IMG/VR virus record: IMGVR_UViG_2718217897_000002
Strand: one strand, 5' to 3'
Source of the DNA: a virus
Lineage: Duplodnaviria > Heunggongvirae > Uroviricota > Caudoviricetes
Length of the DNA: 11,367 nucleotides
In this document: in pieces, positions 1 to 11,367 of the stretch
Numbering within the stretch: the stretch's first letter is position 1
How the letters are laid out: every line of letters starts with the position of its first letter
The notes under the pieces: model-generated
What the model was told of the DNA's origin: nothing
The model's database searches: none
The model's input: the letters and a program-made list of their open reading frames with translations, nothing else
Program-made: the position numbers and the translations under genes

Positions 1-192
1 TTAGTTGCTACGCGATTCGGCTATACGTTGATCGATCCAGTCATCGATCTCGCTTTCAATAAAAGCTATTGCGCGAGAACCAATCTTGACTGATTGGGGG
101 AATTGTCCTCGGCTCATCAGAGCATATACCCACGCCTTGCTATAGCCAGTGCGTTTCAAAACGTCAGATAGCCGAATCAGCGACTTTTTCAT
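1..192 (-). CDS. alpA: AlpA-family HTH regulator of prophages/integrative islands (excisionase-like), 63 aa
   Basis: Complete ORF (ATG at 192, TAA at 3-1). Small basic protein with the AlpA pattern (LIRLSDVLKRTGYSKAWVYALMSRGQFP...IAFIESEIDDWI). Lies beside an integrase fragment, as in P4/CP4-57-type islands. Family assigned from recalled homology. Confidence 0.75.
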   Translation of the reverse strand: MKKSLIRLSDVLKRTGYSKAWVYALMSRGQFPQSVKIGSRAIAFIESEIDDWIDQRIAESRSN

Positions 193-348: not shown

Positions 349-1089
349 TTACTTGGTTATCTTTCCCAAAAAATTGGGTGCGTGCCGCTGCAAAGTCTTT
401 TTTAGAAGCGTTCTTAGATTATCCATGGTCATGCCAGCATCATTGTATTCTTCACTGTACTTTGCGATGTTGTTTGCTGCTTTCTCGCACACCGCGGACT
501 GGTTGAGCTTTCCATTCTTTCTAACGTCCTCGCTGGATTCATATAAAGCAATCGCCAGCCCAGCAATCATTTTCCAGGCGGTGTTTTTGCCGCGCCAGTC
601 ACTGGGGAGCGACCCACTTTCTGTTTCCTCTGCTATCGGTTCATCAATGTTGTGATCTTCCAGTTCTGGGAAGAAGCTCACAAGCTCGGACCGCTTGAAA
701 TAAAACGAATCGTAAGACCCATACCAATCATCCTCATCATCGTGATATAAAAAGTCTTCTCCTTTCCTAACGTTGAAAGTCCCTTCTTCCCCCGGTATCG
801 GGCTCTCCCTGTATTCATGCCCCATAGCCAGAAGACCTAAAAACTCCACACACTGCTTTTCAAAGTCTTCATTAGTCGTAAAACCAGATACCCAATCGAA
901 CTGATAAAAGCCCAGCCCCCCTAAAGTATCTGGTTTAGTCTTGCTCAATCTGTAGTTACTTAAGATAGCGGCAGCTATCATTCTTTCATTTTCATTGTTT
1001 AGTCTTGCCAGTTCGCTGATCAGATTACCAAACCAGATTTTATCTTCTGACTCGTTATAAAACGCATCTAGTCCTGTCATCTTAGTCAC
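349..1089 (-). CDS. Hypothetical acidic protein, 246 aa, between the integrase fragment and alpA
   Basis: Long ORF with GTG start at 1089 preceded by SD GGAAGGAGA (6-nt spacer). Overlaps the integrase-fragment stop by 8 bp. No motif I recognise; Asp/Glu-rich central region. Confidence 0.6.
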   Translation of the reverse strand: MTKMTGLDAFYNESEDKIWFGNLISELARLNNENERMIAAAILSNYRLSKTKPDTLGGLGFYQFDWVSGFTTNEDFEKQCVEFLGLLAMGHEYRESPIPGEEGTFNVRKGEDFLYHDDEDDWYGSYDSFYFKRSELVSFFPELEDHNIDEPIAEETESGSLPSDWRGKNTAWKMIAGLAIALYESSEDVRKNGKLNQSAVCEKAANNIAKYSEEYNDAGMTMDNLRTLLKKTLQRHAPNFLGKITK

Positions 1090-1813
1090 GGCGTGTTCTC
1101 CTTCCGAACTCGTAAGGGCTTATGTGTATTTCTCGATTGGCGTCCAGATAATCTGCCCACCATTGAAGCATTAGTTTGCGCTCTTCTAAGTAATCAGCCT
1201 TGTGCTTGTAGGCTCTTTTAACGTCTTTATATTCTTTGTGGCTCATCTGGCGCTCTACTGCGTCCTCCTGCCACAAACCGGACTCCATCAGGGAACTACA
1301 GGCTGTGGCACGGAATCCATGTCCAGTTACGTCCTCTTGCGTGTTATAGCCCATTAAGCGTAATGCCTTGTTTACCGTGTTTTCACTCATCACGCCTTTG
1401 GTGTTTCTTTCATTCGGAAACACAACATCGTAGCTTCCGCTTAGTTCTCTCAACTGCTTTACAATAGAAACAGCCTGACGGCTAAGAAGCACGATATGTT
1501 CGTCTTTTCCCGTCTTTGTGCCACGGGTGGAAAACCTCACACCATCGATAGGCTCTCTTTTTTTAGGGATAATCCACTCAGCCCGATCAAGGTCAAACTC
1601 TTTCCAACGGGCAAACCTTAACTCGCTTGAACGAACAAAGGTCAACATGGTTAGCTCAATGGCAAGGCGGGTAAGAGGATTACCTTTAAAGCTGCCCAAT
1701 CGAGTGAAAAAGTCTGGTAAATCTCTGGGATGTAGTGCGGCATGATGCTTAGTTTCATATTGCATTAGCCGATATTCCTCAGAGCTTGGAAGAATTGCTG
1801 ATGCATATGGCAC
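1082..1813 (-). pseudogene. 5'-truncated P4-type tyrosine integrase (C-terminal catalytic domain only, 243 codons)
   Basis: Translation aligns with the C-terminal half of P4-family integrases (HGFRATACS...KRAYKHKADYLEERKLMLQWWADYLD, parallel to the IntS C-terminus at 6680-7837). The frame is closed by a stop only 8 codons upstream of the first possible start (1838-1840), and no N-terminal arm/core-binding domain is encoded upstream in any frame. Confidence 0.7.
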
Positions 1814-1829
1814 TCTTGCAAGAGCAGCT

Positions 1830-2270
1830 GTGAAACCTCAGCAGTATATTGAAAGAACAGGGAGAACTGCCAATGTACTACGCGATCTTGATGCTGGTTT
1901 ATCCAACGTTACATCAACAGTGTTAAATGCAATTGCCAACTCAACATCAGGTGCCATTGTTGGTGGAGCAGGAGGCGGGGGCGTTGCTGGCGCTGCCGCA
2001 GGTGCTTTAATTGGCGCCGGGTTAAAAGGCGCTGTATCTAAAATTGCCACCACACGTAGTGGTCGGTATGCGATAGAGAAAGCAGTTCAGGAAGCAACTA
2101 AAGCAGTAAGAGCAGGCGGAAGCAAAGAAGCATTAGTGGCGGCTGAACGCAGATTTATGGCAAATAAAGCTGCCGTAAAAGCAATACGTGATACAGTCGG
2201 AAACGAAGAGTTCAATCGCTTAGCGAGGGCTGGCATTGTAGCGTCGCTAAGCGGAATAGCACAGGAGTAA
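1830..2270 (+). CDS. Gly/Ala-rich glycine-zipper protein (146 aa); possibly the 3' remnant of a larger gene
   Basis: ORF with GTG start at the deletion junction. Central segment AIVGGAGGGGVAGAAAGALIGAGLKGAV is a glycine-zipper-like hydrophobic stretch flanked by Ala/Lys/Arg-rich helices. More GC-rich than the neighbouring cassette. Minus-strand ORFs here are Pro/Ala-rich antisense artefacts. Function unknown. Confidence 0.4.
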   Translation: MKPQQYIERTGRTANVLRDLDAGLSNVTSTVLNAIANSTSGAIVGGAGGGGVAGAAAGALIGAGLKGAVSKIATTRSGRYAIEKAVQEATKAVRAGGSKEALVAAERRFMANKAAVKAIRDTVGNEEFNRLARAGIVASLSGIAQE

Positions 2271-2594
2271 TTAATCATCCATGGATGGATTGAGCTTATC
2301 TCGTGTTGATGTGGCGATTTGTCCTACATTTCTAAGCCAAGATTTCAAATCCTTGATATTGTCATTGATTTCATGAATATCTTCTTTTTTTAATCTGTTA
2401 ACATTATTTTCAATAATTTCAATGGATTGCTCAATATCAGATATAGTGAATGATAGTTTGTTCTTCTCATCTTTTATTGAGTTTTTAAGTGCTTCGTTCT
2501 CAGTCTTGAGGTCAGATATCTTTTGTTTTAAAGATGCCAGTTGGTACTGAACCACAATGAGTGCGATAGCTATCACGATAACTGTTGTATACAC
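2271..2594 (-). CDS. N-terminally membrane-anchored coiled-coil protein (about 107 aa)
   Basis: GTG at 2594 is preceded on the minus strand by a strong SD AAGGAGG (plus 2602-2608) with a 5-nt spacer. Product begins with a hydrophobic helix (YTTVIVIAIALIVVQY) followed by a heptad-like Lys/Glu/Asn-rich region. The longer ORF reaching 2810 would overlap the divergent gene and has no SD, so the short start is preferred. Confidence 0.5.
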   Translation of the reverse strand: MYTTVIVIAIALIVVQYQLASLKQKISDLKTENEALKNSIKDEKNKLSFTISDIEQSIEIIENNVNRLKKEDIHEINDNIKDLKSWLRNVGQIATSTRDKLNPSMDD

Positions 2595-2624
2595 ACCAAC
2601 CTCCTTAGTTTTGCGCAGGATACC

Positions 2625-2990
2625 ATGAAAAAAGTTAACATTGGAAACGTACCAAAGATGCTCGTTCCGCTCTTTGAGAGCGGTACAATTGTGTTTTGTA
2701 GAGACTTTCCAGAATGGCAACGCCTGCATCAAAAACTTGGCGTTGACGTGCATGACTCGGACGCCAACGGAGCGTCTCATACAATGAGTAGCGAGAATGG
2801 TGTTTTGCATGTGATAGGCGTGTTCAATGGCAAACTATCTACTATTGCCCATGAGTGCGCTCACATGGCATTCGATATCTGCTCAAGGGTAGGTGTTGAT
2901 GTTGAACCAGGAAGAGCCAACGAGACTTACTGCTACTTAATGAGCAGGCTTGTTGAGTTCTGCGAGCGACATATCAAAAAGCCGGAGTGA
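2625..2990 (+). CDS. Small HExxH-motif protein, possible minimal Zn-metallopeptidase (ImmA/IrrE-like motif), about 121 aa
   Basis: ATG at 2625 with AGGA at 2617-2620. Motif STIAHECAHMAFD (HECAH encoded at 2850-2864) with Glu 19 and 25 residues downstream. The ORF-track start at 2541 would overlap the divergent gene. Stop lies inside a hairpin (2979-2998). Fold and activity unverified. Confidence 0.5.
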   Translation: MKKVNIGNVPKMLVPLFESGTIVFCRDFPEWQRLHQKLGVDVHDSDANGASHTMSSENGVLHVIGVFNGKLSTIAHECAHMAFDICSRVGVDVEPGRANETYCYLMSRLVEFCERHIKKPE

Positions 2991-3003: not shown

Positions 3004-3183
3004 TTACTTTTTGCTGTCTGGAGTTCGCTTATCTAATACCCAGCCATGACCTGGCTTTGTTGTTGGTGGAAGCCTTTCGTTGTCCTTGACGGTGGCAAAA
3101 TTGTCTTTCTTACCGCCGCGTGGGCCAACTTCTTGGTATATTCCGCCGTTTTTTCCTGTGTTTTCACCTGGTTTTTTCGCCAT
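3004..3183 (-). CDS. Small basic Gly/Lys/Pro-rich hydrophilic protein (about 59 aa)
   Basis: ATG at 3183 preceded by SD GAGGT (6-nt spacer). Product MAKKPGENTGKNGGIYQEVGPRGGKKDNFATVKDNERLPPTTKPGHGWVLDKRTPDSKK, no hydrophobic segment. It loosely recalls small uncharacterised YjzC-like proteins, but I cannot verify that. The overlapping plus ORF 3046-3240 is judged antisense. Confidence 0.5.
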   Translation of the reverse strand: MAKKPGENTGKNGGIYQEVGPRGGKKDNFATVKDNERLPPTTKPGHGWVLDKRTPDSKK

Positions 3184-3275
3184 GATATACCTCAACATAC
3201 ACCCGTTATTGGGCGATTAAATATTGATCTCATTTTATAAGTAGTCAATATGGCCCAGGTAAATGCAAAAATTAA

Positions 3276-3297
3276 CCCACCGTCAGGTGGTTTTTTT
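3276..3297 (+). terminator. Rho-independent terminator-like hairpin (CCACC-GTCA-GGTGG followed by T7)
   Basis: 5-bp GC-rich stem 3277-3281 / 3286-3290, tetraloop, seven T at 3291-3297. An A-run precedes it, so it could work in both directions. Confidence 0.5.
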
Positions 3298-3348
3298 GTA
3301 CAAATCCTTCAGCCAGTACATAACTACTGACAGATAACCAACGCAACG

Positions 3349-3372
3349 ATCCAGCTTCGGCTGGGTTTTTTT
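3349..3372 (+). terminator. Rho-independent terminator (stem with TTCG tetraloop followed by T7)
   Basis: Stem ATCCAGC (3349-3355) / GCTGGGT (3360-3366), TTCG loop, then T-run 3366-3372. Confidence 0.55.
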
Positions 3373-3561
3373 ATGCCCAAAATTCACCGTAGCCATGCTG
3401 CGGAGATTCCTTGTATCTGGAGCAAATTAAATGACAGATATTATAAATGGGAATTGTTATTTAATAATGTTTGAAAATAAAAATCATGGACGATAGGAAT
3501 AAAGGTATTACTTGTTTTTATTTTTGTAAGTGACGCATTAAGCGCATAAATAATATGCCTG

Positions 3562-3590
3562 TTGATCAAGATTCTTGAGTATTGTAAAAT
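3562..3590 (+). promoter_or_regulatory. Candidate sigma70 promoter for the tailspike operon
   Basis: TTGATC (3562-3567), 17-bp spacer, TAAAAT (3585-3590), in an AT-rich leader about 125 bp upstream of the tailspike start. Confidence 0.4.
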
Positions 3591-3714
3591 AATCGTTTTG
3601 TTCATGTTGCATGGTTTTTAAATGAATAGAAGGTTATTTTTCAAAACAATTGCATCTTTGTCTGCAGTCATTCCGTTTTCTTCAATATCTAAATCTTCAA
3701 ACAGGATGACTAAT

Positions 3715-6300
3715 ATGCCTGATATAACCCCAAATGTTGTGATAGGTATGCCATCGCAACTCTTCACAATGGCTAGCTCTTTTAAAACCGTAGCAAATGG
3801 AAAAATTTATATCGGTAAGATTGACACAGATCCGGTAAATCCAGAAAACCAGATTCCAGTATATCTGGAACGAGAAGATGGTACTTATGTTCAGGTGCCA
3901 CAGCCAATCGTTATCAATGCTGCTGGATACCCGGTATACAACGGACAGATTTCCAAATTCGTTACCGTGCAAGGCCATTCTATGGCTGTTTACGATGCAT
4001 ATGGTACGCAGCAGTTCTATTTTCCGAATGTGCTTAAGTACGATCCTGATCAATTAAGACAACAATTAGAAGACCCGGAAGGTGCTAAAAAATATCATGA
4101 ATTGCAGATGTCTCGGTGGCGTGATGACGCTGACCCTCGCGGATGGGGAGCAAAAGGTGATGGCATCACCGATGACACATTATCTTTTCAAGAGTTAGAA
4201 AAACAAATCACAGGAAGGATTGTTGATCTAAGGGGTAATACATATATAACAGATCAAGTTTATGATGGAAATAAGTATATAAATGGCTATTTTCGCACAG
4301 AGAATCGATTACTGCCAGATGCTGATTTTACTGAAAAAAGAATACAAACTATAAAAAAGGGGATGTATACAGGTTTCAGATCTTCTACTCCTAATCATGT
4401 TAAGTCAGGGTTGCGACTGGCAACAATTAAAAATACTGTCATACAAGGTGCTGTTCTTGATTATTATGACAGTGTTCTTTATTGCTTGGTAAATGTGAGT
4501 GGCAGCGTTAGTTCTGGTGATGAAGTTAATAAAGTTGTTGCTTATAATTGGTTTGGGAATGAAGAGTTAACTCCTCTTTGGGAGACTAAAGGTAGTAGAG
4601 AATTAGGACATCAATGTCTTGGTTTAACCATAGGGCGCGTTGGTTTTCGTAACACAAGAGGCCAGTTACAGATATGGGGGTTAGCTGGCACAACTAAAGG
4701 AGAGGATCGCGCAAAGTATATCACCAGATTCACCCCTACTGATGGTGGTGAAATTGAACCAGAGTTTTTTCTCATATGGGAAGATGGTTACGAGAATCAG
4801 GTAAATGTTTTATGCACCGACCCTATGAGTCGATGGCTGATTACTACAGCAAAACGTTATGTTGGCCCAGGTGAGAGCCCATCAACACCAGATCAAATTC
4901 GCTATTATGTAAAAGTATTTGATACCAGTAAATTTATTAACCCGCAGGCGTACAATTACGATTATCGTAATGAAGCAACTTTTGAATTTGAAATTGCTGA
5001 TTTTGTGAGGGATATGCAAACAGTTGCGTGTGACGGTACTGCTATTTATTTTTGTCAGGCTGGATCTGCATATTCTTCAACCAGAAAATATTTGCATCAG
5101 TACACACTTGATGGTGTTTATCTTGGGGTGCAGCAAATACAGGCAGGTGCAGGAAGAGCCTATGAAATAGCAGATCCAAATGATACCGGAACGCCAGATG
5201 TTAGCAATCTTACATATGAACCAGAAGCAATGTTTTTCCGTATGATTGCAGGTGGGTATGACCTTGTAATGGGGAATACAAATGGCATACCAGATGGTGA
5301 TAGTGGGCGAGAAACTACATTTTACACATTAATGCCACAACAGGTAATGCATGTAAAAACAACATCAAGAAATCAGCCTGGTATTATCATTGATTCAACC
5401 CATGATATTGTCACTAACTCTGGTTTGTTAAGCCTTGGTAAAATTATGCCTGGTGGTGAAGTCATAGAGCAGGCAAACCTTGATGACAAAGGATTCACTG
5501 TTTCGAGGGCAACAACACAAGCCGCCCGTTATGATGCAAAGAATACGTTACGGAATGTAACTTTTCATGTTAGTGAAAAAGGTGATACCGGTATTTATGA
5601 CTTTACCAATGCTCAATGGATATTTAAATCTCCCTTATCAACATCTTCATATTCGTATATCGGTCAGTCAGCGGAGGTTAATGGCTATATAAGTGCTAAT
5701 AAAGATAATACGTCATCATGTGGGACATCATCTAAACGGTGGACGCAAGTATATGCAACTAATGGGGCAATAAATACTTCAGACCAGACATTGAAAACAA
5801 AGCCACTGACAGTAGAGCAACTTTCAGAAATCATGGAGGTGGATCAGGATGCAATTCTTGACGCATGGGGTGACGTAAATATTATCGTTTACCAGTGGTT
5901 GTCCGATATTAAGGCTAAAGGTTCGGATACTGCTCGTTGGCATTTCGGAGCAATTGCACAGCAGGTAAGAGATGCGTTTCTTGCAAAGGGGATAGATGGA
6001 ACAAGATTTGGCTTGCTATGTCATGATAAATGGGATGATGAGTACCAACCTGTAATGGCACAGCGCAAGGTGTCATTTATAGCTAAATCCCCTGAAGGAG
6101 AAGACATCGTTCACGAATACTTTGAAGAATACGATACTGGTGACACGGAACTGGTTGTACATGCTGGTGAGCGTTGGGGATTGCGTCCAGATGAATGTTT
6201 GTGGTTGGAGGCTGCATTCCAGCGAAGAAGGTGTGAACGTATTGAATCTCGTTTAACAGAGCTTGAATTGATAATTAAAAAAGCAAAAGAGATAGAGTAG
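3715..6300 (+). CDS. Phage tailspike protein: P22/Sf6-type N-terminal head-binding domain, central beta-helix (pectate-lyase-like) receptor-binding/depolymerase domain, C-terminal intramolecular chaperone (peptidase S74-like) domain
   Basis: N-terminus [18 protein letters not shown]...[27 protein letters not shown]...[15 protein letters not shown]...NVLKYDPDQ closely matches the P22/Sf6 tailspike particle-binding domain as I recall it. [13 protein letters not shown] (4141-4179) is the usual start of a right-handed beta-helix. C-terminal SDQTLK...[12 protein letters not shown] resembles the auto-cleaving chaperone domain of endosialidase and T5 L-shaped fibres. Start chosen at the ATG with AGGA 8 nt upstream; the ORF stays open back to 3622, with 3706 as an alternative start. 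Confidence 0.9.
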
Positions 6301-6588
6301 ATGGATAAAACCCCAATTCATCACGCACTTTGCGCTGTGGTCGCACAGGTACTGGTTGGTCTTTTTACCGGAAACTGGGCTTACGGAGCGATAGCCGGTT
6401 GTACATTCTTCATCGCTCGTGAACATACCCAGGCAGAATATCGCTGGATTGAAATGTTCGGACATGGCAAGCGAATGAATATGCCGTGGTGGGGCGGTTT
6501 TGATCCGCGCGCTTGGGATGTGGCAAGCCTGATGGATTTTTCTTTCCCAATTATCGGATGCTTATTGGTATGGATTCTTGCATCGTAG
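6301..6588 (+). CDS. Small integral membrane protein (95 aa), co-transcribed with the tailspike gene; unknown function
   Basis: ATG at 6301 directly follows the tailspike TAG (6298-6300). Hydrophobic N-terminal segment (ALCAVVAQVLVGLFTGNWAYGAIAGCTFFIA) and C-terminal segment (FPIIGCLLVWILAS) with a Trp-rich loop between. Sits where P22-like phages carry O-antigen modification genes. Confidence 0.55.
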   Translation: MDKTPIHHALCAVVAQVLVGLFTGNWAYGAIAGCTFFIAREHTQAEYRWIEMFGHGKRMNMPWWGGFDPRAWDVASLMDFSFPIIGCLLVWILAS

Positions 6589-6679: not shown

Positions 6680-7837
6680 TCACTCCACCTTTTCATCAAG
6701 CCAATCCGCCCACCACTGCATCATTTCTCTGCGCTTATCGAGATACTGAGCGTGGTTGTAAATTCCACGCACAGAACCGCCGTTGGCATGTGCCAGTTGC
6801 ACTTCAATAGCATCAGCAGGCCATTCGTGCTCGTTCATAATCGTGCTGAATTCATGCCTGAATCCGTGACCGCTTTCCAGACCTTCATAGCCGATTTGTT
6901 TGATCACAAGCAATACCGCGTTCTCGCAGATTGGCTTCTTCTTATCGTTGCGCCCGGAAAAAACAAACTCTGATACTGGTTTAGTGATTGAGCTTAGTGT
7001 AGTGAGAAGTTCAACCACCTGGTCTGACATCGGGACAACATGAATTTTGCGTCCCTTCATCACACTGGCGTCGATGGTGATAATCCTGTTTTCAAAATCG
7101 ACGTTCTTCCATAGCATGGAACGAAGCTCTTTTGTTCTTAGGGCTGTGTAGCGTAAAATTTTGGTAGCAATGAGCGATACGATACTTCCTGAAAATGTTG
7201 CAAGTGCTTTGTTGAATGCCGGGATCTGGTCGGCAGGTAAAAATGGGAAGTTCTTCTTGCGGTATCCCTTCATGGCGTCAGCAAGGTCAGGTGCCGGGTT
7301 ATATTTAGCCCTTCCGGTGACAATAGCGTAACGGAAAACCTCGCCGCATCTTCTGCGGGCTTTGTTGGCTCGCTCCATTGCACCGCGATCTTCAAATCTG
7401 CGGATTACTTCCAGAAGTTGCATCGGCTCAATATCCTGAATTTCAAGGGCGCCGATGATAGGTAAAATGTCGTCATCAAACATTTTGGCAAGTTCATTTG
7501 CATAGCCTACTGACCAGACTTGCTTCTTGTGCTCGTACCATTCCTTGTAAATCGCACAAAAGGAATTGTTGTTAGACGAAGCCTTTTTCGCCTTTACCGG
7601 ATCGATGCCAACCGAGATGTCTTTCCTCGCAGTCCATGCTTTATCCCTTGCCTCCTGCAAAGTCATAAGCGGATATTTTCCGACGGTCAGGATTTTCTCC
7701 TTACCGTCAATCTTGTAGCGAAGCTGCCAGACCTTTTTTCCGGATACAGGGACATAAAGGTACAGGCCATTACCATCGAGAAGGCGGTATGGTTTTTCTT
7801 TCGGCTTTGCTGCTTCAATCTGCTTAACGGTGAGCAT
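6680..7837 (-). CDS. intS: P4-type tyrosine integrase, IntS-like (385 aa)
   Basis: Translation from the internal ATG (MLTVKQIEAAKPKEKPYRLLDGNGLYLYVPVSGKK...) through ...HAQYLDKRREMMQWWADWLDEKVE matches prophage integrase IntS as I recall it. Gene starts 161 bp downstream of the argW 3' end in the same orientation, the classic tRNA-int arrangement. The ORF track extends 12 codons further to a GTG at 7873. Confidence 0.9.
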   Translation of the reverse strand: MLTVKQIEAAKPKEKPYRLLDGNGLYLYVPVSGKKVWQLRYKIDGKEKILTVGKYPLMTLQEARDKAWTARKDISVGIDPVKAKKASSNNNSFCAIYKEWYEHKKQVWSVGYANELAKMFDDDILPIIGALEIQDIEPMQLLEVIRRFEDRGAMERANKARRRCGEVFRYAIVTGRAKYNPAPDLADAMKGYRKKNFPFLPADQIPAFNKALATFSGSIVSLIATKILRYTALRTKELRSMLWKNVDFENRIITIDASVMKGRKIHVVPMSDQVVELLTTLSSITKPVSEFVFSGRNDKKKPICENAVLLVIKQIGYEGLESGHGFRHEFSTIMNEHEWPADAIEVQLAHANGGSVRGIYNHAQYLDKRREMMQWWADWLDEKVE

Positions 7838-7998
7838 GGGTAAAAATCCGGTGGGTAAAATTATTTTATCCACTTTTTACCCGTCATGGTGTGCGGCTGT
7901 CAACGATCTGACGCGAACCATGCCGAACTGTGAATCTAAGGAAGGCTTGATATTCAAGGGATTTTGCGGACTGGTACGGATGGGAGCGAACTGATAAA

Positions 7999-8073
7999 TG
8001 GTGTCCCCTGCAGGAATCGAACCTGCAATTAGCCCTTAGGAGGGGCTCGTTATATCCATTTAACTAAGAGGAC
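7999..8073 (-). tRNA. argW: tRNA-Arg (anticodon CCU)
   Basis: Minus-strand 75-nt sequence GTCCTCTTAGTTAAATGGATATAACGAGCCCCTCCTAAGGGCTAATTGCAGGTTCGATTCCTGCAGGGGACACCA folds as a cloverleaf: 7-bp acceptor stem, D stem GTTA/TAAC, anticodon stem AGCCC/GGGCT with loop CTCCTAA (anticodon CCT), T stem GCAGG/CCTGC with loop TTCGATT, encoded CCA. Confidence 0.9.
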
Positions 8074-8148: not shown

Positions 8149-9081
8149 TTATGCCGGGTTTTTATAATTTTTCTTAATGTTTTCCGCACGTTCTGCTTTT
8201 TGGCGTGCTTCTGCTTTACGCTTATTGCTCATGTCGTTACGAATCTGTGCATGACTCATTAACGCGAAGATAAAGGTGCCGCCGCAGATGTTCCCCGCTA
8301 AAGTAGGTAGTGCGAAGGGCCAGATGAAATCGCTCCAGTGCAGCGTGCCGTTAAACACCAGATAGAGGATTTCAACAGAACCGACCACGATATGGGTGGT
8401 GTCACCCAGGGCAATAAGCCAGGTCATCAATATAATCACCACAATCTTTGCCGCACCCGCTGCAGGAAACATCCAAACCATAGTGGCGATCAGCCAGCCG
8501 GAAATGATCGCGTTGGCAAACATCTCGCTGGGGGTGTTCTTCATCACATCCATGCCGATTTTGACAAATGCATCGCGAGTTTCTTCATTGAAGATAGGCA
8601 TATATTCAAATGCCCACGCCGCAATACCTGTCCCGAGAATATTACCCAGCAGCACGACGCCCCATAACCGTATAAGTAAGCCGACGTTGCTCATTGTCGG
8701 TTTTTGCATGACGGGTAGTACCGCAGTCACGGTATTTTCGGTAAATAATTGCTGGCGGGCCATAATGACGATAATAAAACCAAAGGTATAACCGAGATTC
8801 TCCAGCAAGAAGCTGCCCGGCACACCTTCCAGTTCGACATGAAATATCCCTTTTGCCAGTAACGAAGCGCCCATCGACAGACCCGCCGCAATGGCTGACC
8901 ACAGTAGCGCCATTGCGTCGCGTTCCAGCTCTTTTTCACCATCCTGGCGGATATGCTCATGAATTGCCATCGCCCGGGAGGGGAGTCGGTCTTCATCTAT
9001 TTCTATTTTTTTGCCGCGCTCTTTTTCTTCGCTCTCAACTTCAATTTCGTCGCTGTGTTGATCAATTTTGTCGTTGTCCAT
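8149..9081 (-). CDS. yfdC: Formate/nitrite transporter (FNT) family inner-membrane protein YfdC, 310 aa
   Basis: Acidic N-terminal tail followed by multiple hydrophobic helices. Sequence and position (between argW and mlaA) match E. coli YfdC as I recall it. Confidence 0.85.
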   Translation of the reverse strand: MDNDKIDQHSDEIEVESEEKERGKKIEIDEDRLPSRAMAIHEHIRQDGEKELERDAMALLWSAIAAGLSMGASLLAKGIFHVELEGVPGSFLLENLGYTFGFIIVIMARQQLFTENTVTAVLPVMQKPTMSNVGLLIRLWGVVLLGNILGTGIAAWAFEYMPIFNEETRDAFVKIGMDVMKNTPSEMFANAIISGWLIATMVWMFPAAGAAKIVVIILMTWLIALGDTTHIVVGSVEILYLVFNGTLHWSDFIWPFALPTLAGNICGGTFIFALMSHAQIRNDMSNKRKAEARQKAERAENIKKNYKNPA

Positions 9082-9374: not shown

Positions 9375-10130
9375 ATGAAGCTTCGCCTGTCGGCGCTTGC
9401 TCTGGGAACTACGCTTCTGGTGGGGTGTGCGAGTTCCGGTACAGATCAGCAAGGGCGTTCTGACCCGTTAGAAGGGTTCAACCGCACCATGTACAACTTC
9501 AACTTCAATGTATTAGACCCGTATATTGTTCGACCGGTCGCTGTCGCCTGGCGTGATTATGTTCCGCAACCGGCGCGTAACGGTTTGAGCAACTTTACTG
9601 GCAACCTTGAAGAACCTGCGGTGATGGTTAACTACTTCTTGCAGGGCGACCCTTATCAGGGGATGGTCCACTTTACCCGCTTTTTCCTGAACACCATTTT
9701 GGGGATGGGCGGTTTTATTGATGTTGCAGGGATGGCGAACCCGAAACTGCAACGGACTGAACCTCACCGCTTCGGTAGTACGCTTGGTCATTATGGCGTG
9801 GGTTATGGGCCTTACGTCCAGTTACCGTTCTACGGTAGCTTCACGCTGCGTGATGACGGTGGTGATATGGCGGATGGTCTTTACCCGGTTCTTTCCTGGC
9901 TGACCTGGCCGATGTCTGTGGGTAAATGGACGCTTGAAGGGATAGAAACTCGTGCGCAGTTGTTGGATTCCGATGGTCTGCTGCGTCAGTCGTCCGATCC
10001 TTATATTATGGTGCGCGAAGCGTACTTCCAGCGTCATGATTTCATCGCTAATGGCGGCGAACTCAAACCGCAGGAAAATCCGAACGCACAAGCGATTCAG
10101 GATGATTTAAAAGATATTGATTCTGAATAA
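9375..10130 (+). CDS. mlaA: Outer-membrane lipoprotein MlaA (VacJ), phospholipid-asymmetry maintenance, 251 aa
   Basis: SD GGGAGA 6 nt before the ATG. Signal peptide with lipobox LLVGC. Sequence matches MlaA/VacJ as I recall it. Confidence 0.9.
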   Translation: MKLRLSALALGTTLLVGCASSGTDQQGRSDPLEGFNRTMYNFNFNVLDPYIVRPVAVAWRDYVPQPARNGLSNFTGNLEEPAVMVNYFLQGDPYQGMVHFTRFFLNTILGMGGFIDVAGMANPKLQRTEPHRFGSTLGHYGVGYGPYVQLPFYGSFTLRDDGGDMADGLYPVLSWLTWPMSVGKWTLEGIETRAQLLDSDGLLRQSSDPYIMVREAYFQRHDFIANGGELKPQENPNAQAIQDDLKDIDSE

Positions 10131-10669: not shown

Positions 10670-10945
10670 GTGGCTTCTGTTTCTATCAGCTGTCCCTCCT
10701 GTTCAGCTACTGACGGGGTGGTGCGTAACGGCAAAAGCACCGCCGGACATCAGCGCTATCTCTGCTCTCACTGCCGTAAAACATGGCAACTGCAGTTCAC
10801 TTACACCGCTTCTCAACCCGGTACGCACCAGAAAATCATTGATATGGCCATGAATGGCGTTGGATGCCGGGCAACTGCCCGCATTATGGGCGTTGGCCTC
10901 AACACGATTTTACGTCACTTAAAAAACTCAGGCCGCAGTCGGTAA
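10670..10945 (+). CDS. insA: IS1 InsA (transposition repressor / N-terminal part of the InsAB' transposase), 91 aa
   Basis: GTG start. Product contains the zinc-finger CPSC...CSHC and matches IS1 InsA. Confidence 0.9.
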
Positions 10946-11367
10946 CCTCGCGCATACAGCCGGGCAGTGACGTCATCGTCTGCGCGGAAATGGACGAACA
11001 GTGGGGCTATGTCGGGGCTAAATCGCGCCAGCGCTGGCTGTTTTACGCGTATGACAGGCTCCGGAAGACGGTTGTTGCGCACGTATTCGGTGAACGCACT
11101 ATGGCGACGCTGGGGCGTCTTATGAGCCTGCTGTCACCCTTTGACGTGGTGATATGGATGACGGATGGCTGGCCGCTGTATGAATCCCGCCTGAAGGGAA
11201 AGCTGCACGTAATCAGCAAGCGATATACGCAGCGAATTGAGCGGCATAACCTGAATCTGAGGCAGCACCTGGCACGGCTGGGACGGAAGTCGCTGTCGTT
11301 CTCAAAATCGGTGGAGCTGCATGACAAAGTCATCGGGCATTATCTGAACATAAAACACTATCAATAA
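10864..11367 (+). CDS. insB: IS1 InsB reading frame (catalytic part of the InsAB' transposase made by -1 frameshifting), 167 aa
   Basis: Product matches IS1 InsB. Frame is -1 relative to insA and overlaps its 3' end. The stop codon is the last three bases of the window. Confidence 0.9.
10921..10927 (+). other. IS1 programmed -1 ribosomal frameshift motif (A6C)
   Basis: AAAAAAC lies in the insA/insB overlap, where IS1 is known to shift frame to make InsAB'. Confidence 0.6.

Follow-up and report, generated by a model that had tools for sequence, protein, structure and literature searches.

SieA of phage P22 is, to our knowledge, the only exclusion protein of a short-tailed phage with a mapped target, the gp16/gp20 DNA conduit, and its gene is carried by only about a third of sequenced P22-like phages. 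Here we describe a gene of the hkcB family which occupies the place of sieA at positions 2271–2594 (minus strand) of the virus record IMGVR_UViG_2718217897_000002. This record of 11,367 nucleotides (nt), called the window in the following, is the E. coli chromosome around argW; left of the integrase gene lies what remains of a decayed P22-like (Lederbergvirus) prophage, namely its right end. By analogy with sieA we tentatively propose that hkcB protects the host against related phages, that is, by superinfection exclusion.

P22 sieA in single copy, together with only 85 bp of upstream DNA, confers an at least 10^7-fold exclusion, and escape mutations were located in the C-terminal regions of gp16 and gp20 (PMC10883804). 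The component crossing the cytoplasmic membrane is gp16 (bioRxiv 10.64898/2026.09.03.749273), and a conserved motif of SieA is predicted to be cytoplasmic. The stretch between genes 16 and 9 has been named the 'ant moron' or immI region (PMC2629481). A precedent for a small inner-membrane exclusion protein encoded beside a tape-measure gene is gp15 of HK97 (PMC3594210).

The hkcB cassette in the slot of sieA

Judged by its sequence, the gene belongs to the hkcB family of P22-like prophages, the members of which are hypothetical genes. The encoded protein matched PHROG 5962 ('unknown function') over residues 1–107 with E=1.3e-58, and tblastn against phage genomes revealed identities of 98% to gene 14 of epsilon34, 96% to hkcB of CUS-3, 93% to Salmonella phage SEN22 and 58% to hkcB of HK620. 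The genes of HK620, CUS-3 and epsilon34 are equal in length and position to the window copy, which differs from them in lying in a truncated prophage remnant. WP_065273934.1 is identical to the window protein. The following features of the window were compared with the sieA locus.

2271–2594, minus strand: coding sequence of the hkcB family, 107 amino acids, GTG start codon, TAA stop codon at 2271–2273 (open reading frame list and translation)
2595–2655, minus strand: control region shared by sieA and hkcB, with the Shine-Dalgarno sequence at 2600–2606, TGGTATCCT at 2617–2625 and the PsieA equivalent at 2625–2655 (comparison with the P22 upstream region)
1763–2270, plus strand: 3' remnant of ejection-protein gene 16 of the HK620/epsilon34 type (PHROG 770, 'DNA transfer protein', E=4e-23; alignment to full-length gp16)
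2625–2990, plus strand: hkcC, the divergent 'HExxH' gene, 121 amino acids, HECAH encoded at 2850–2864 (PHROG 1365, E=1.7e-39)

Both hkcB and P22 sieA follow gene 16 directly in convergent orientation and are read in the same direction as mnt, and the type-B sieA gene of E. coli HS was found in the same slot and orientation. The 126 nt located 5' of the two GTG start codons are identical at 125 positions. This identity takes in PsieA, which is an annotated feature of the P22 record NC_002371, the Shine-Dalgarno sequence and the GTG itself; immediately past the GTG, hkcB and sieA diverge. A leader of about 32 nt is conserved in front of hkcB across many different upstream contexts. The two genes did not occur together in any of 112 loci selected by either gene. 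hkcB is a cassette that replaced sieA behind the control region of sieA.

The products themselves are both predicted inner-membrane proteins of P22-like prophages, but they show no detectable homology. BLASTP gave just an 18-residue chance match, hhalign a probability of 0.6%, and the SieA motif FxRYPxEAxxFNK is absent from HkcB. SieA proteins are multi-pass proteins of about 160–210 residues (164–212 in the family, 164 in P22), whereas HkcB has 107 residues with one hydrophobic segment, a single membrane helix followed by one long helix, and the motif WxxNVGxIATSTRDK. An earlier note on this DNA had called the gene SieA-like; this holds for its position and regulation and does not hold for homology. 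The shared promoter and leader, the mutual exclusivity with sieA and the multi-cassette nature of the slot are absent from the papers that were searched, although they would come as no great surprise to specialists in P22-like phages.

The neighbourhood with gene 16 is constant. In the window the stop codons of the two genes abut directly (TAA and TTA, 2270/2271), and in 76 of 76 loci hkcB was convergent with gene 16 at a distance of 0–4 nt, exceptionally about 20 nt. The neighbour was always the long gp16 (700–870 residues) of the HK620/epsilon34 type, the C-terminal approximately 500 residues of which are unrelated to P22 gp16, and distant HkcB homologues (25–35% identical) also adjoin a gp16-like gene. 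Furthermore, sequence divergence in hkcB parallels that in the C-terminal two-thirds of gp16. For the deposited gp16 proteins of HK620 (L003) and CUS-3 (L004) we obtained 76.7% identity over 725 residues by BLASTP; a value of 26% is given in PMC10883804.

This invariant stop-to-stop adjacency, the parallel divergence and the absence of a terminator between hkcB and gene 16 in a terminator scan would also fit an action of hkcB in the lytic cycle together with gp16. As a membrane-anchored protein, HkcB could help or regulate the production of ejection proteins, their assembly or their insertion into the membrane; alternatively, expression of gene 16 and of the tailspike gene could be tuned by the convergent transcription of hkcB. 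It has been proposed that late transcripts extend across the moron into the tailspike gene and that the moron of P22 modulates this read-through (PMC2629481). We regard a lytic role as improbable. hkcB is antisense to the late operon. It was present in only about 35 of 80 sampled phages with long gp16, and 7 of the 80 had no moron at all; consequently, gp16 does not depend on hkcB for its function. P22 hybrids which carry the ejection-protein genes of HK620 or CUS-3 and lack hkcB gave normal infectious yields (PMC10883804).

The occupants of the slot after gene 16 were surveyed in these 80 sampled loci with the long gp16 type.

HkcB, full length: 33 of 80 loci
HkcB, truncated: 2 of 80 loci
161-residue lipoprotein: 15 of 80 loci
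no occupant, tailspike gene directly next: 7 of 80 loci
140-residue protein without predicted membrane helix: 6 of 80 loci
small proteins with two transmembrane helices, 64–71 residues: 3 of 80 loci (L183, L193, L194)
78-residue lipoprotein: 2 of 80 loci (L180, L181)
88-residue protein with transmembrane helix plus coiled coil, unrelated to HkcB (hhalign 11%): 2 of 80 loci (L185, L187)
SieA-like protein beside long-type gp16: 1 of 80 loci (L178)
others: about 9 of 80 loci

Most occupants are envelope proteins. The envelope proteins known from this position include HkcB, the lipoproteins of 161 and 78 residues, the small proteins with two membrane helices, the protein with transmembrane helix plus coiled coil, and SieA, of which the literature distinguishes the types A, B and C. 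Locus L186 carries a protein with three membrane helices in this slot. The larger lipoprotein (157–161 residues, MKKSLLIIPLLLVGC..., with a Gln-rich helical middle) was found directly after gene 16 in the IMG/VR loci L142, L151, L161, L177 and others, and in the loci checked its gene has the common leader up to the Shine-Dalgarno sequence. It is a candidate for another exclusion protein. A strict one-to-one coupling between exclusion gene and gp16 type was considered and rejected, as the long gp16 also occurs with the lipoprotein, with the SieA-like gene of L178 and without moron.

In about eight further loci only a short 3' scar of hkcB was left. Such a scar, the last approximately 20 nt of the gene (encoding ...NPSVDD and the stop codon), lies beside gene 16 in L127, L130, L140, L149, L163 and L188–L192. 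Since the scar persists where the rest of hkcB was replaced, the junction between gene 16 and hkcB is suggested to be a recombination boundary.

The hkcB family is confined to P22-like prophages. At 90% identity, 5.8 billion proteins contained 21 clusters of the family, and when 1.84 billion representatives were searched with a profile, only about five true clusters were recovered, so that remote homology provides no functional lead. hkcB was present in 154 of 5,426 complete E. coli genomes (about 3%). A scan of contigs from one genome per species did not find a relative; evidently, such representative genomes lack these prophages. Under the name hkcB the gene was already entered in the HK620 genome record, and hundreds of genomes carry it with a hypothetical annotation; in the epsilon34 genome paper, gene 14 appears as a homologue of hkcB with unknown function (PMC2629481).

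Reading frame and architecture of HkcB

The GTG start codon of hkcB is located at 2594, and the coding sequence of 324 nt translates into 107 amino acids. A Shine-Dalgarno sequence, AAGGAGG (CCTCCTT on the plus strand, 2600–2606), lies 5 nt 5' of the GTG. The ATG of the divergent hkcC gene (2625) is preceded by AGGA and separated from the GTG by exactly 30 nt (2595–2624). Thus, the coordinates agree with the 30-bp spacing and the two Shine-Dalgarno sequences described in the earlier note. The same coding sequence of 324 nt, encoding 107 amino acids, was called in other E. coli genomes by the NCBI Prokaryotic Genome Annotation Pipeline (PGAP). The start position is common to 34 of 34 distinct family proteins, and it is kept together with the Shine-Dalgarno sequence at all loci examined; strain A3 has ATG at this position.

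The same note had named a true start at the upstream ATG at 2810, which would yield a product of 179 amino acids, as a finding that would speak against its reading. The 179-residue frame is indeed open without interruption, and longer starts are chosen by some automatic gene callers. In other genomes, however, the called N-terminal extensions have nothing in common apart from the translated Shine-Dalgarno region, translation from 2810 would run antisense across part of the conserved hkcC gene, and the strong Shine-Dalgarno sequence, the conserved start and the ATG of strain A3 all mark position 2594. The upstream start was therefore unsupported. We also estimated the ratio of nonsynonymous to synonymous substitution rates (dN/dS). 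The median pairwise value of 0.23 (505 pairs) reveals purifying selection, with the lowest regional value, 0.14, in the C-terminal 22 residues. Consequently, hkcB is a real, constrained protein-coding gene, and it is hardly conceivable that the 179-residue protein is the true product or that the open reading frame is no gene.

The G+C content of hkcB is 30–33% compared with 46–51% in the flanks; such richness in A+T is usual for morons. Three features inside the coding sequence are relevant for the protein.

2532–2591, minus strand: single transmembrane helix, residues 2–21 (YTTVIVIAIALIVVQYQLAS), by hydropathy, within the AlphaFold2 helix 2–101
2385–2391, plus strand: run of seven T (A7 on the coding strand), codons 68–70 (L-K-K) of hkcB
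2274–2339, minus strand: most conserved segment of the family, residues 86–107 (W-x-x-N-V-G-x-I-A-T-S-T-R-D-K-L-N-P-S-M-D-D), by alignment and dN/dS of 0.14

An A7 run had been noticed before and is present, but its position is 2385–2391 and not 2384–2390. It encodes Lys-Lys and was intact in all 27 loci that have it; genes of the HK620 type carry an A8 run elsewhere, which is likewise always intact. Phase variation at the A7 run was rejected, as no length variants were seen among the loci with the run.

Residues 2–21 are strongly hydrophobic (mean Kyte-Doolittle value 2.2) and represent the only hydrophobic segment of the protein. AlphaFold2, run with an alignment of 14 sequences, gave one continuous helix from residue 2 to residue 101 with a mean predicted local distance difference test (pLDDT) score of 81. 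Hydrophobic residues recur with a period of 3.6, and the observed power was reached by none of 2000 shuffles. Three heptad blocks are present, with register shifts near residues 50 and 80. The N-terminal transmembrane helix and the long heptad-like helix postulated earlier were thus confirmed by hydropathy, structure prediction and periodicity. A Foldseek search of the model against the PDB gave no match, as expected of a single helix. W86, N89, V90 and G91 are invariant, including the homologues of 25–35% identity, and two distant members (35% and 25% identical) retain both the membrane helix and the W-x-x-N-V-G motif.

All 34 distinct family proteins have no Lys or Arg before the membrane helix and two to four within the 15 residues after it. 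According to the positive-inside rule, the orientation with the N-terminus outside and the long helix in the cytoplasm is the more likely one because the basic residues only follow the membrane helix. Probably, HkcB would thus be inverted relative to i-spanins.

This bears on the reading of hkcB as an Rz-like i-spanin, which the earlier note had put forward, or as another effector of lysis or cell division, for example of the FtsB/DivIC type. Like lambda Rz and P22 gp15, HkcB is a phage protein in the range of about 100–150 residues with a single N-terminal membrane helix and a helix prone to coiled-coil formation, and weak matches were obtained to Rz-like spanin PHROGs (E of about 1e-3), Pfam DivIC (20.6 bits, cut-off 28.9) and NCBIfam FtsL (E=0.01). 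These matches, however, are far below threshold and stand among dozens of other coiled-coil families; scans of Pfam, NCBIfam and PADLOC gave only sub-threshold coiled-coil noise. BLASTP found no alignment to P22 gp15/Rz, for which hhalign gave a probability of 0.3%, and hhalign with an E. coli FtsB query gave 0.9%. The family lacks the basic N-terminus seen in P22 Rz (MSRIK), and the window protein contains no cysteine, whereas P22 Rz has several, two of them in the periplasmic domain. An o-spanin partner was not found either. Both alternative frames of hkcB are full of stop codons, no lipobox open reading frame was detected, an Rz1-like gene is neither embedded nor adjacent, and the neighbours of hkcB in the window, gene 16 and hkcC, are no o-spanin genes. 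The embedded Rz1-like lipoprotein gene which the earlier note had suggested searching for does not exist in these frames. The note was right that, in the window, no lysis cassette is nearby. P22-like phages have their own Rz/Rz1 genes, which belong to the late lysis cassette (next to genes 13 and 19 in P22) and lie far from the locus in intact relatives. The place of hkcB is the 'ant moron', which separates genes 16 and 9, and hkcB stands on the strand opposite to the late operon. By similarity, partner, location, strand and N-terminal charge the spanin assignment fails, and a role in lysis or cell division is very unlikely. FtsB mimicry, considered for a Q16-Y17 pair at an FtsB-like position, was rejected in view of the hhalign result and of the Gln residue, which is unconserved in the HK620 subtype and in distant members.

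A possible function in superinfection exclusion

An exclusion role of hkcB is suggested because it has its slot and its promoter in common with the phage-blocking gene sieA of P22. By analogy with the P22 work (PMC10883804), the DNA 5' of hkcB should have promoter activity. Most likely, hkcB would be transcribed from the repressed prophage, here the decayed remnant at argW, because it lies behind the promoter region, the leader, the Shine-Dalgarno sequence and the GTG of sieA. HkcB would then be inserted in the inner membrane and would most likely disturb the gp20/gp16 DNA conduit of P22-like phages entering the cell, either in its assembly or in its function. Likely targets would be phages with the long HK620/epsilon34-type gp16, its constant companion. 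A mechanism on the cytoplasmic face may be envisaged because gp16 crosses the cytoplasmic membrane and the SieA motif is predicted to be cytoplasmic.

Exclusion is experimentally established for SieA and is proposed for HkcB by analogy. The same applies to a comparison with HK97 gp15, Sie2009 and Ltp. Like these, HkcB is a small moron product, predicted to be in the membrane and encoded in a virion-structure operon beside its apparent target in DNA delivery. Their sequences are unrelated to HkcB, and they act on long-tailed phages by a function which is established for them.

A more specific proposal, doubtful in all its details taken together, is that the slot after gene 16 is a site of cassette exchange with at least six unrelated envelope proteins, of which at least three (SieA, HkcB and the 161-residue lipoprotein) stand behind one promoter and leader. 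HkcB would represent a non-homologous class of exclusion proteins. Passing the membrane once, with its N-terminus outside and its helix in the cytoplasm, it would block the inner-membrane channel of gp16 in phages of the long type.

Several points weigh against an exclusion function. The variable moron slot is circumstantial evidence, and its 140-residue occupant without membrane helix is unlike an envelope protein. PsieA itself is just 'putative' in the literature, and a strict sigma-70 consensus scan found no promoter upstream of hkcB (none on either strand of 2271–2990). Sequence and profile comparisons detected no similarity to SieA or to PADLOC defence models beyond coiled-coil noise. By the positive-inside rule the long helix would lie on the cytoplasmic side, which is not the obvious side for blocking a periplasmic conduit, and its constant association with a single type of gp16 may reflect nothing more than physical linkage. 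Experiments on any hkcB gene were not found in the searchable literature.

The main rival reading is an envelope protein expressed by the prophage which has a role in lysogenic conversion apart from exclusion, for example in a membrane process, stress tolerance or fitness, with a slot that is merely permissive. The region between genes 16 and 9 was described as being in rapid flux, with different and probably non-identical functions (epsilon34 genome paper, PMC2629481). The heterogeneous occupants of the slot agree with this description, unrelated cargo accumulates here as indicated by a YafO-family toxin gene directly upstream of hkcB in UTI89 and CUS-3, and no defence-family match was found for HkcB. 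On the other side, the one slot occupant with a characterised function excludes phages, and exactly its control region stands in front of hkcB; hkcB was never found apart from gene 16 of one type, and its family does not extend beyond P22-like prophages. We judge such a separate role in lysogenic conversion to be possible, though on the whole unlikely.

The divergent gene hkcC and the surrounding remnant

hkcC is co-oriented with the late operon and annotated under this name in HK620; it is also present in P22, though unannotated in NC_002371. Its conserved protein, assigned to a PHROG of unknown function, had no match in Pfam, NCBIfam or PADLOC. A dedicated divergent pair of hkcB and hkcC was considered and rejected, as each gene was found without the other: of 34 loci with sieA, 14 contained hkcC, and of 78 with hkcB likewise 14. 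The 30-bp divergent pair is thus one arrangement among many, because hkcC neighbours hkcB in only about 14 loci, and the gene directly upstream of hkcB was one of at least 15, oriented either way.

From the divergent starts it had been concluded that each promoter lies inside the other gene. This applies to hkcB, as the PsieA equivalent lies within the first 31 nt of hkcC. It does not apply to hkcC, which shares the direction of the late operon, so that read-through can transcribe it and a promoter inside hkcB is not required. The mutually exclusive expression suspected earlier is plausible, but for a reason other than the one given: late read-through of hkcC would oppose hkcB transcription driven by PsieA. 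The extended -10-like element TGGTATCCT at 2617–2625 is another promoter candidate for hkcB. Its conservation in most contexts is open to two interpretations, as its complement is the hkcC Shine-Dalgarno sequence. The following features lie beyond hkcC.

2979–2998, both strands: hairpin resembling a bidirectional terminator, at the end of hkcC (terminator scan; annotated as tORF59A in HK620)
3004–3198, minus strand: homologue of orf59a/HkcD, a small conserved moron gene (PHROG 3202, E=1.3e-31), co-oriented with hkcB
3622–6300, plus strand: tailspike gene
6680–7873, minus strand: IntS-like integrase gene
7999–8073, minus strand: tRNA-Arg(CCT) gene, argW

The hairpin should isolate hkcB from leftward transcripts begun further upstream. 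mnt encodes a repressor which is expressed in lysogens, and in CUS-3, UTI89 and one distant relative hkcB lies downstream of mnt and is co-oriented with it. A 199-residue hypothetical gene and a 139-residue gene, assigned by RefSeq to the YafO toxin family, directly precede hkcB in CUS-3 (L004, 2975–3978) and UTI89 (L114, 3975–4978). They stand on the strand of hkcB after two mnt-like genes and possibly form a toxin-antitoxin module in a lysogen-oriented string of genes. In epsilon34 (L006, 3463–3882) and E. coli C4 (L007, 9464–9883) the divergent neighbour of hkcB is gene 15, in an epsilon34-type arrangement. In related loci its product starts with MEIDMKRII...LSGC and thus looks like a lipoprotein. 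About 15 nt of the 5' end of hkcC remain as a remnant between gene 15 and hkcB.

The order in the remnant is the 3' end of gene 16 (about 500 nt), hkcB, hkcC, the orf59a homologue and the tailspike gene. In intact relatives it is 7-20-16-[hkcB]-hkcC-orf59a-mnt-(arc-ant)-tailspike. A coding sequence of 180 nt is annotated for the orf59a homologue in relatives, and P22 orf59a is in the equivalent place. Comparison of 3199–3621 with E. coli A3 revealed that the mnt (Arc-family) gene is missing between orf59a and the tailspike gene. The remnant lacks the structural genes and mnt; with mnt, the immI repressor is gone from the moron of the window, and so are arc and ant. A gene for a hydrophobic protein of 95 residues (6301–6588, plus strand; PHROG 1443, unknown function) begins immediately behind the tailspike stop codon, and this pair is also present in E. 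coli A3.

On the left side, homology to intact prophages begins at 1763. Gene 16 is cut at about 1763–1771, where a C-terminal tyrosine integrase fragment from another element (1082–1813, minus strand) adjoins it; that element also contributes a 246-residue open reading frame without family match (349–1089, minus strand) and a small helix-turn-helix regulator gene (1–192, minus strand). This junction was found in one piece in none of the 5,426 complete E. coli genomes; its halves match separately at 99–100%. To the right of argW, the translations of the open reading frames at 8149–9081 (minus strand) and 9375–10130 (plus strand) probably correspond to yfdC and mlaA; yfdC follows directly after argW in a related genome. 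The stretch 10670–11367 (plus strand), with InsA-like and InsB-like open reading frames, runs off the window edge and looks like a copy of the insertion sequence IS1.

If HkcB and the lipoproteins behind the same leader are alternative exclusion proteins, P22-like prophages would have found several independent molecular solutions to one problem, and each of these proteins would be a probe of the inner-membrane crossing of the ejection-protein channel. This would account for the fact that few virion genes vary as much as genes 16 and 20, and would give a provisional functional label to a hypothetical gene of about 3% of complete E. coli genomes. If HkcB has no exclusion activity, hkcB would be an ordinary moron gene of unknown function.

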